From contig OZ024763.1 of NCBI GenBank assembly GCA_964016885.1, forward strand, positions 12,586,001 to 12,650,000: a stretch of 64,000 nucleotides of DNA, written 5' to 3'. Below the pieces are notes generated by a model. It searched no databases. It saw only the letters and a list, made by a program, of their open reading frames with translations, and had not been told where the DNA came from. Of this stretch, positions 790-52,695 are shown in pieces (position 1 is the stretch's first letter; each line of letters begins with the position of its first letter). A program made the translations under genes and the position numbers. Origin of the DNA: Eledone cirrhosa. Its lineage: Eukaryota.

Positions 790-1400
790 ATCTCGTCTGT
801 TCGTTTTTACCCTTTCTAGCAGTCTCTCTCTCTGTTAGCCTTCTCCTCAACTTTCACTCACTCATTCTCTGTCACTACCTCTCCTCCTCCTCTTTCCTCC
901 TCCTCCTTCAAATTTGACCTGTGTGTAATTCTTTTCTCGCGCGGTCTTGACCAAGCTGATATGGAAATTTTTTTTCTCTCTCTCTCTTTCGTCTGCGACT
1001 TCACAAAACTTATGTTTACCGAATTCGTAGACCAGACCCCTTTATCTTCTTCTCTCTTTTTCCCCCCCCGTCAAACTTGGGCGAAATTCTTTACTTGCTC
1101 ACATTTCAACCAGGTTTGATGGTCTTTTGTCTCTTGTTCACGATTTCACCGAGTTTATATTCATAGAGATCTGGGACTTGTCTATTTCCTCTCACTTTCC
1201 GTTGCTTAAACTTTTTTGTTTGTTACCCTGGCGTCCCCTTTGTTTACGTGTCCCAACGACTTTTTTTAGCCGTTGTTCGCACCAACCTGAGGCATATGGC
1301 CCTTAAAGCGATGAAATGCCTGCGACGGTTGGAGGGTCACTGATGAAGGACCTACTTTTTCACATGCCCCACCATTTGCAACGGGCAGCCTATTATTATT

Positions 1401-1404
<4 letters not shown>
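790..1404 (+). mobile_element. (TA)n-flanked non-autonomous element or Penelope-like terminus carrying the rearranged HHR
   Basis: Pyrimidine-rich body, HHR-like motif near the 3' end, (TA)n on both sides; 3' tail resembles 15431-15503 and 51551-51625. Confidence 0.5.
1282..1351 (+). ncRNA. Rearranged (non-circularly permuted) hammerhead-like RNA motif
   Basis: AGGCAT-A-TGGCCCT (1290-1303), then GAA-ATGCCT (1313-1321), then AGGGTCA-CTGATGA (1333-1346). Stem III AGGCAT/ATGCCT, stem I TGGCCCT/AGGGTCA, distal helix CCAACC/GGTTGG. Confidence 0.7.
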
Positions 1405-1445
<41 letters not shown>

Positions 1446-9266: not shown

Positions 9267-9397
9267 AAGTTGTCTGTCTCTCTCTCTCTATTTGTATGTC
9301 TGCCAGTCTCTTTATCAATTGGACCGCCATAACAATTGGAACGAGGCCACCAATAAATGATTTTGGCCATTATCATTTCAGATTCTTCTCCCCCACC

Positions 9398-50798: not shown

Positions 50799-51346
50799 GG
50801 TATTCCCAAAAAATAATAGTCAGAGTAAAAATATGGAAAAACCAGGAGATACGCGAGTCTACATGTTAGATCATTAATAGATTGTTCTTTGAGCTGATCG
50901 ACAGTGAAACATATGTAATATGTAATTAGATATGCATATCGCAACACTGATTCTTTGTTCCTTTATATATTAATACTATTGATACTCTGCTCTCCCAAGA
51001 GCATCGAGTGCTCATCTGGCATACCGCCTACGGACGCAATTAACTTGCACCTTAACATATATATATATATATCAGGTTGGCCACAACTTACTTTCCCTAT
51101 TTTTCCGCGGTTACTCTTTTGCATATTTATTTCACCTGTGTCTTCCCACGATGGGACCTGTTCACTTGTTTTTTCCTATTCTTTTTCTATTTTTCCCCCT
51201 TTTCCCTTTCTTCCTTTCTCCTCGTCTATCCCCCCCCCCCCCACACCTCTGTTCTTCCACTTTTCCCCATCTTTCCTCTCTCCTTGTTTCTCTCTTTCTC
51301 TCTCATTTTCCCCCTCGCCTTTTGATTAATAAAAGGCCCCGGGCGC

Positions 51347-51420
51347 TCCCGAACTCCACCGATGTCCTGTAATTCAGCGCCGAAACATCGGATCGGGAAA
51401 CATTTACAGCTGACGAAGGA
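51347..51420 (+). ncRNA. Rearranged hammerhead-like motif, second complete copy (element about 51074-51515)
   Basis: CCGATGT-C-CTGTAA, then GAA-ACATCGG, then TTACAG-CTGACGA; distal helix TCCCGA/TCGGGA. Confidence 0.7.
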
Positions 51421-51513
51421 AACTCCTTTCTTCCTTTCTCCTCTTGTTCCGCCCAAACCACCATCCTAAACCTTGTTTCTAGTAACCACACAGCTCCTTT
51501 CGTTTCATATCAT

Positions 51514-51550
<37 letters not shown>

Positions 51551-51551
<1 letters not shown>

Positions 51552-51652
51552 AAAAACATGGGAAGAAAGAGGAATACTGCGTGGTTGCACATGGGTTACA
51601 TATTATAAAATTAGTCCCTCATCAGTGATTTGCCAACCATCATTGGTATTTC
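51551..51652 (-). mobile_element. Family C fragment with GAAA and CUGANGA strands in rearranged order
   Basis: Minus strand GAA-ATACC..GGTTGGC-AAATCA-CTGATGA-GGGAC; flanked by TA runs. Confidence 0.6.
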
Positions 51653-51960
51653 ATATATATTAACTAGTCTGTGTACAATTATAATATTAAGCTGCAACAT
51701 TAAAATAACGCTTATAACCTACAACAGACCCCAAAAGTGCCGCCCTCCATAAAATTGTCGCCCGTGGAGGACTGCCCCCTCTAGCTATGCTATTGAGGAG
51801 GGGACAGTCGATTATATCTACACCAGTGTTTGGCTGGTACTTTATCATATCGACCACGGGAAGCTGACTGACTAAGTTGACCCCGGCGATATTTGAACTC
51901 AAAACGTAAAGATCCCGAACAAATACTGCTAAACATTTGTCCGACGTTCTTGCCATCTGA

Positions 51961-52695
<735 letters not shown>

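Follow-up and report, generated by a model that had tools for sequence, protein, structure and literature searches.

The window, a stretch of 64,000 nucleotides of the Eledone cirrhosa genome (contig OZ024763.1, positions 12,586,001 to 12,650,000), contains a copy of a non-coding repeat unit, referred to here as family A, with a hammerhead motif near its 3' end, and a unit of a second family, family B, with a motif of the same architecture (Table 1). In the family A motif, the complete hammerhead core set is present, i.e., CUGANGA, GAAA, A15.1-U16.1 and H17. The blocks follow each other in the order S-G-C, which is none of the circular orders of types I, II and III (CGS, GSC and SCG). The stem II strand located before GAAA pairs with an upstream strand, beginning at G10.1-C11.1, and helices IV and V are inserted between A9 and G10.1, with both ends of the motif sitting in helix IV. 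As in the type SGC hammerheads described in PMC10085705, a further helix connects the far sides of stems I and II; it is located between stem II and stem I. Cleavage is predicted after C51366 in this copy and after A1296 in the family B motif, which has a U.U mismatch at 10.1-11.1.

Table 1. Repeat units and hammerhead motif elements in the window.
Feature	Position	Strand	Remarks
Family B unit, almost full	792..1405	+	between (TA)n runs; period 630-765 bp
Motif of the same architecture, family B	1250..1351	+	helix IV 1250-53/1348-51, helix V 1254-75, stem II 1277-80/1308-11
Non-coding Penelope-like unit copy, family A, 5'-truncated	51073..51515	+	between (TA)n runs; includes the optional ~40-nt 3' tail
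Open-form hammerhead motif, family A	51307..51422	+	all core nucleotides present; block order S-G-C, non-circular
Helix IV, 5' strand	51307..51312	+	pairs with 51417-22
Hairpin V	51317..51337	+	7 bp in the window copy
Stem II, 5' strand	51342..51347	+	starts with G10.1; separate from CUGANGA
Stem I-stem II interaction helix, 5' strand	51348..51352	+	distal helix of the original prediction
Block S	51359..51372	+	IIIb 51359-65 (U16.1), C17 51366, Ia 51367-72
9-nt linker	51373..51381	+	3-nt linker, then stem II 3' strand 51376-81 (C11.1 = 51381)
Block G (GAAA and stem III 5' strand)	51382..51391	+	GAAA 51382-85; IIIa 51385-91
Interaction helix, 3' strand	51393..51397	+	
Block C without stem II	51404..51416	+	stem I 3' strand Ib 51404-09; CUGACGA core 51410-16
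Helix IV, 3' strand	51417..51422	+	directly after A9
Family B fragment, 5'-truncated	51548..51652	-	GAAA, core and tail present; cleavage block absent

The original prediction had placed a rearranged hammerhead-like fold at 51347..51420. Helices III and I, the core and GAAA are indeed found there; the motif, however, starts at around 51307, and stem II as well as helices IV and V had been missed. The proposed cut after GUC 51364-66 is upheld as a prediction, with C17 at 51366. The 9-nt linker ending in AGCG exists, but its AGCG belongs to the 3' strand of stem II, which pairs with 51342-47. The distal helix pairs as proposed; T51347, however, is a minority base (5 of 43 family copies), so the helix common to the family has 5 bp. 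The AGGA after the core, which had been noted in both copies, is not invariant; it is the 3' strand of helix IV, and 32 of the 43 copies have T as the first base. The copy at 1282 shares the architecture, but belongs to the other family, and an alignment of the units of families A and B revealed only short, low-complexity matches between them.

Scanning both strands of the window with a descriptor that allows any block order resulted in exactly two loci, 51365 and 1295, both S-G-C, compared to one S-G-C match and three matches of any order in total on both strands of 40 dinucleotide-shuffled windows; the claim that chance is an unlikely source of the motif holds up. An Rfam scan at the gathering threshold gave no matches. 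Descriptors for type I would not match the motif because of its pseudoknotted strand order and its full 7-bp stem III. Nested folding of the window copy gives helices IV and V, the interaction helix and stem III with an unremarkable z of -1.2, and a copy of one A-type subfamily reached a z of -5.1; stems I and II remain unformed since the method is pseudoknot-free. A hepatitis delta virus (HDV)-like fold, judged by eye, was dropped, as P3/L3 do not fit between the candidate strands.

The complete core set is present in 37 of 43 family copies, which were chosen by similarity or pattern. The junction pair of helix IV is A-U in 31 of these, U-A in seven and mismatched in five, one of which is the window copy, and it switches between A-U and U-A from one subfamily to another. 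Base 51312 is C in the window copy and A or T in 39 of the 43 copies, and the closing pair of hairpin V is C.C in the window copy and G-C in 38 copies; the window copy is therefore mismatched at two junction pairs. In 986 contigs from one sequencing run, the majority bases at 51312 and 51417 are A and T as well; these contigs were not counted as independent support.

For family A, covariation was analysed in 14 rows spanning the subfamilies, which were drawn from 69 untruncated copies; the interaction helix was misaligned in this set and omitted from the count. 92.1% of the cells are paired, and two-sided changes are found at six pairs, three in helix IV and three in stem I, a number reached in one of 500 shuffles. 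The family B set comprised 41 of 55 rows after removal of one family A row, two junction chimeras and near-duplicates. Here, 94.5% of the cells are paired and 40 cells show two-sided changes, which was reached in none of 500 shuffles; the count of seven two-sided pairs was reached in 95 of 500. These changes fall in stems I and III and hairpin V, and none of them in stem II, helix IV or the interaction helix. In both families, the paired percentage and the two-sided cell count were reached by none of 500 shuffles, although kinship among the rows inflates such tests. Stem II is paired in 100% of the cells over the 14 rows of family A with one-sided changes only; its two-sided covariation is confined to the comparison between the families, the partners of which were selected for pairing.

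Families A and B consist of non-coding units of around 650-850 bp with one hammerhead per unit, located near the 3' end. The tandem period is 753-847 bp in family A (n=4) and 630-765 bp in family B (n=23). In both families, partial tandems are seen, as are inverted truncated copies next to the units, with (TA)n as the usual boundary; the units have two 3' end points around 40 nt apart. The family A copy in the window is 87% identical to the unit at locus L003 over 457 nt, and the third motif of the window, the family B fragment on the reverse strand, lies head-on right after the (TA)n run of this copy. A pattern that spans linker, GAAA and core matches the 3.0-Gb assembly exactly at 9,343 places, compared to one match in the control, and a family A-specific pattern has 689 matches compared to none in the controls. 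Identity between copies amounts to 95-100% in family A (40 scored of 813 candidates) and 99-100% in family B (40 scored of 138). Partial tandems, inverted truncated copies, an optional tail of 30-40 nt and a ribozyme close to the 3' end are hallmarks of Penelope-like elements (PLEs); apart from the ribozyme, they are also given for Naiads, which likewise target (TA)n (PMC8557442). The Penelope link of the original prediction holds on the basis of these hallmarks and of the same fold found downstream of Naiad-type ORFs elsewhere (see below).

Some other repeats were observed as well. The flanks of L029 and L034 contain a different repeat, which is flanked by (TA)n, includes a long inverted segment and often adjoins these elements. 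At 1540-1570 of the window (approximate, reverse strand), a core in canonical order (CUGAUGA, stem II, GAAA) is similar to the one with which a Neptune remnant in L091 ends, and several type I-like families of this kind are present among the genome loci. Window positions 51960-52150 are occupied by a 43-bp tandem repeat (4.4 copies, 99% matches).

A search upstream of the copies for an ORF with a reverse transcriptase (RT) and a GIY-YIG domain had been proposed; none was found at any sampled copy: searches of 60 loci, seven longer stretches and 25 diverged loci gave unrelated repeats only. Unlike Naiads, which as autonomous elements encode an N-terminal GIY-YIG domain and an RT, the sampled units of families A and B have no coding capacity, and no long sequence match to a Naiad ORF was found. 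A Naiad RT pattern had no matches in this genome or in viral contigs. In a Naiad RT search of the genome, in which 92 of 4,170 candidates were scored, the Naiad hits were broken remnants only (best E value 2.5e-18); an intact Naiad could have escaped this search. The pattern of the published octopus Naiad 3' motif had no matches in this genome; a looser version had 25 compared to none in the controls, in which family A variants and decayed single copies are mixed. The decayed motifs, which occur as single copies and are similar to the 3' end published for octopus Naiads, are located at L099-L104, L111, L112, L115, L116 and L120, and no ORF was seen within 1.5 kb upstream of them. Among the loci examined, no physical link between the 3' ends of families A or B and an autonomous Naiad of this genome was found.

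The only intact PLE ORFs seen in this genome are Neptune-type ORFs and one Nematis-like fragment. Families A and B could be read as retrozyme-like repeats with an active ribozyme which, whatever their origin, are carried by a non-Naiad partner such as the young Neptune family. In this Neptune, too, the 3' end lies at either of two points and before (TA)n, and animal retrozymes have been proposed to be non-autonomous PLE derivatives (bioRxiv 10.64898/2026.07.22.740005). However, Neptune has no sequence in common with the A and B units, the similarity of the tails is not significant (112 of 2000 shuffles), and a Neptune remnant in this genome carries a canonical type I core; moreover, an intact Naiad may have gone unnoticed among the 4,170 candidates, 92 of which were scored. 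A non-Naiad partner is thus considered improbable, and the young Neptune was rejected as a candidate. This Neptune-type PLE (L254-L282) is abundant and has intact ORFs and a 3' region rich in microsatellites; its pLTR contains a type I-like fold, judged by eye, with a non-standard first core strand.

The same fold is found downstream of Naiad-type RT genes elsewhere. A search for the Naiad RT motif gave at least 121 metagenome loci and 21 genome-contig loci. L335-L355 are Naiad-type RT motifs in 21 bacterial-labelled contig stretches, for which eukaryotic contamination is probable. Long Naiad-type ORFs contain, by eye, an N-terminal GIY-YIG domain ahead of the RT, and this order was also obtained for both long ORFs scanned (L180 and L183), with Pfam matches under curated cut-offs. 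Ten distinct metagenome motifs were picked on stems I and III alone. All ten lie on the sense strand, and in each of them stem II forms with an upstream strand over 4-6 bp, whereas next to the core it would amount to 0-1 bp (0 bp in nine of ten). Per-locus shuffles give weak support for the detached stem II (p 0.013-0.34); the domain formed by IV, V and II exceeded 60 of 60 shuffles in five of nine metagenome motifs and in six of six genome copies, and the other four metagenome motifs were not clear of the shuffles.

For the downstream scan, 101 loci with flanks were used (41 short ones were left out), 77 of which have at least 200 nt downstream (70,128 nt in total). The descriptor was composed after examples had been seen, and many contigs stop before the end of the element. 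In the 77 loci, 17 hammerheads were found downstream of the RT, all on the sense strand and all non-circular; neither the antisense and reversed controls nor any circular order gave a hammerhead. As their distance to the RT motif is 636-2,500 nt, some of the 17 may belong to a neighbouring element. G10.1-C11.1 is present in 16 of them. They comprise ten open forms (two of which are identical), one form that is open by eye, two identical plain CSG hammerheads and four closed CSG hammerheads. In the latter (L128, L166, L202 and L336), two closed hairpins, IV and V, are located between A9 and G10.1 ahead of a 6-bp stem II, thereby forming a two-helix domain of 23-29 nt. Helices IV and V are supported most strongly by these four closed forms, which correspond to the window motif in circularly permuted form. 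In the RT tree, the open form and the closed form are intermingled (four and three changes), and no order of events is therefore claimed. L183 and L187 have plain type-CSG hammerheads downstream of Naiad-type ORFs; by eye, such hammerheads are also seen at the consensus ends of nematode Naiads (supplement of PMC8557442).

In a simpler reading, the motif would be a plain type SGC hammerhead with a vestigial stem II of 1-2 bp after CUGANGA, and the upstream pairings would be incidental. Just one or two pairs can be drawn directly after CUGANGA in the motifs of families A and B, where the published SGC has stem II; in family B, A9 can be followed immediately by an A-U pair, and very short stems II occur in nature, as does the U10.1.U11.1 mismatch (PMC3088659). 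The near absence of an adjacent stem II in the metagenome motifs, the covariation of the bases after the core with the upstream strand of helix IV and the closed forms, in which hairpins IV and V precede a 6-bp stem II, argue against this reading and make it very improbable. The reading with two helices inserted at the A9/G10.1 junction is therefore preferred.

Naiads were stated to lack canonical hammerheads, with eight flagged as HHR_half_core and some as HHR_core (PMC8557442). In the supplement of this paper, places around four core spellings were inspected (45 of 62, 15 of 23, 15 of 25 and 15 of 43). By eye, the open form, which is the fold of the window motif, is seen at consensus 3' ends of Naiads in ten passages; going by neighbouring headers, these include records from coral, box jellyfish and octopus (two records). 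Plain CSG was read in five passages, three of them beside nematode headers. Several other Naiad ends in this supplement, in which a stretch rich in C precedes the core and a GAAA lies upstream, could not be fitted by eye and may represent other wirings. The ribozyme motif of families A and B is likely what Naiad-type elements had seemed to lack.

The type SGC and CSG hammerheads of PMC10085705 share with the window motif the non-circular order, all core nucleotides, a linker of around 3 nt between stems I and II and the interaction helix. In these hammerheads, however, CUGANGA is joined to stem II, a connection that was assumed to be uninterruptible, whereas block C of the window motif is split by helices IV and V and no stem II strand follows CUGANGA within 0-2 nt. 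Furthermore, they are known from metatranscriptomes and metagenomes only; PMC10085705 reports none of these RNAs from known genomes except for one bacterial candidate, and octopus is unmentioned in its supplement, while the window motif occurs in thousands of animal chromosomal copies. Type CSG was known before from two metagenome sequences. Animal non-LTR retrozymes resemble families A and B as non-coding tandems with one hammerhead each, located near pLTR-like ends, and were proposed to be non-autonomous PLE derivatives (PMC4209133; bioRxiv 10.64898/2026.07.22.740005), but they are defined by type I hammerheads in circular order, which are often minimal and cleave as dimers; the A and B units are not of type I. 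At the A9/G10.1 junction, one extra base is tolerated (PMC3705267; PMC4209133), and CChMVd and many PLE motifs demonstrate that a one-nucleotide insertion is compatible with cleavage. In contrast to this single base, the junction holds a two-helix domain in the closed form and a chain break in the open form; the published precedent found is the single nucleotide, and the two-helix insertion is known from sequence. Variants 'with additional helices' are mentioned in PMC13725137, and none of that kind was found in the text of PMC10162972. In the literature covered, which included few subscription journals, neither non-circular hammerheads in animal genomes or Naiads nor a helical insertion at A9/10.1 were found.

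Taken together, the locus is, with good confidence, a hammerhead core in non-circular order with two helices inserted at A9/G10.1, which belongs to a likely non-autonomous derivative of a Naiad-type element and is predicted to cleave itself after C51366. The strands would fold into the usual hammerhead active site, with helix IV stapling the 5' and 3' ends together where A9 would meet G10.1, helix V leading into stem II and the interaction helix tying stems I and II. Tandem transcripts might then be cleaved into unit-length RNAs, which are possibly circularised, as was proposed for PLE hammerheads (PMC4209133) and retrozymes (bioRxiv 10.64898/2026.07.22.740005), and the released RNAs might be copied in trans into (TA)n sites by a Penelope-like RT/endonuclease; these later steps are put forward more cautiously than the fold. 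The cut after C51366 is predicted by analogy, since types SGC and CSG cleave; their rates in vitro are 0.004-0.19 per minute (PMC10085705). Self-cleavage is judged to be probable for the family and somewhat probable for the window copy. Family B copies are 99-100% alike although the Naiad RT remnants in the genome are broken.

The fold could also be conserved as a hammerhead derivative that no longer needs to cut and instead offers a retroelement protein a site for binding or priming. In vitro, insertion of a Poseidon element does not depend on hammerhead cleavage, and no reads ending at the cut site were found (PMC11167929); eight of nine Xenopus retrozyme dimers tested were not cleaved (bioRxiv 10.64898/2026.07.22.740005), and the inserted helices could distort the A9/G10.1 region. 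However, distantly related RT lineages retain all positions needed for catalysis, along with the NUH site and G10.1-C11.1, and H17 is never G, a restriction that the descriptor had imposed. Loss of cleavage thus appears unlikely, and a self-cleaving motif is favoured.

Beyond this genome, it seems fairly probable that Naiad-type PLEs across animal phyla possess their own class of active hammerheads, which are non-circular, often carry a two-helix insert at the junction and interconvert between closed and open forms, with more than 9,000 copies in this genome that have been spreading recently. The motif breaks a stated design rule, as CUGANGA and stem II had been held to be inseparable, and it places non-circular hammerheads, previously a matter of anonymous metatranscriptome contigs, on animal chromosomes at high copy number. 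It also offers an explanation for the seeming absence of hammerheads from Naiads, which had served as an argument that these ribozymes are dispensable in PLEs. If the motif is active, the A9/G10.1 junction would be a natural site for domain insertion or chain opening, which would be useful in ribozyme engineering, and if the class extends to Naiads in general, non-circular hammerheads would be abundant in animal genomes rather than rare.
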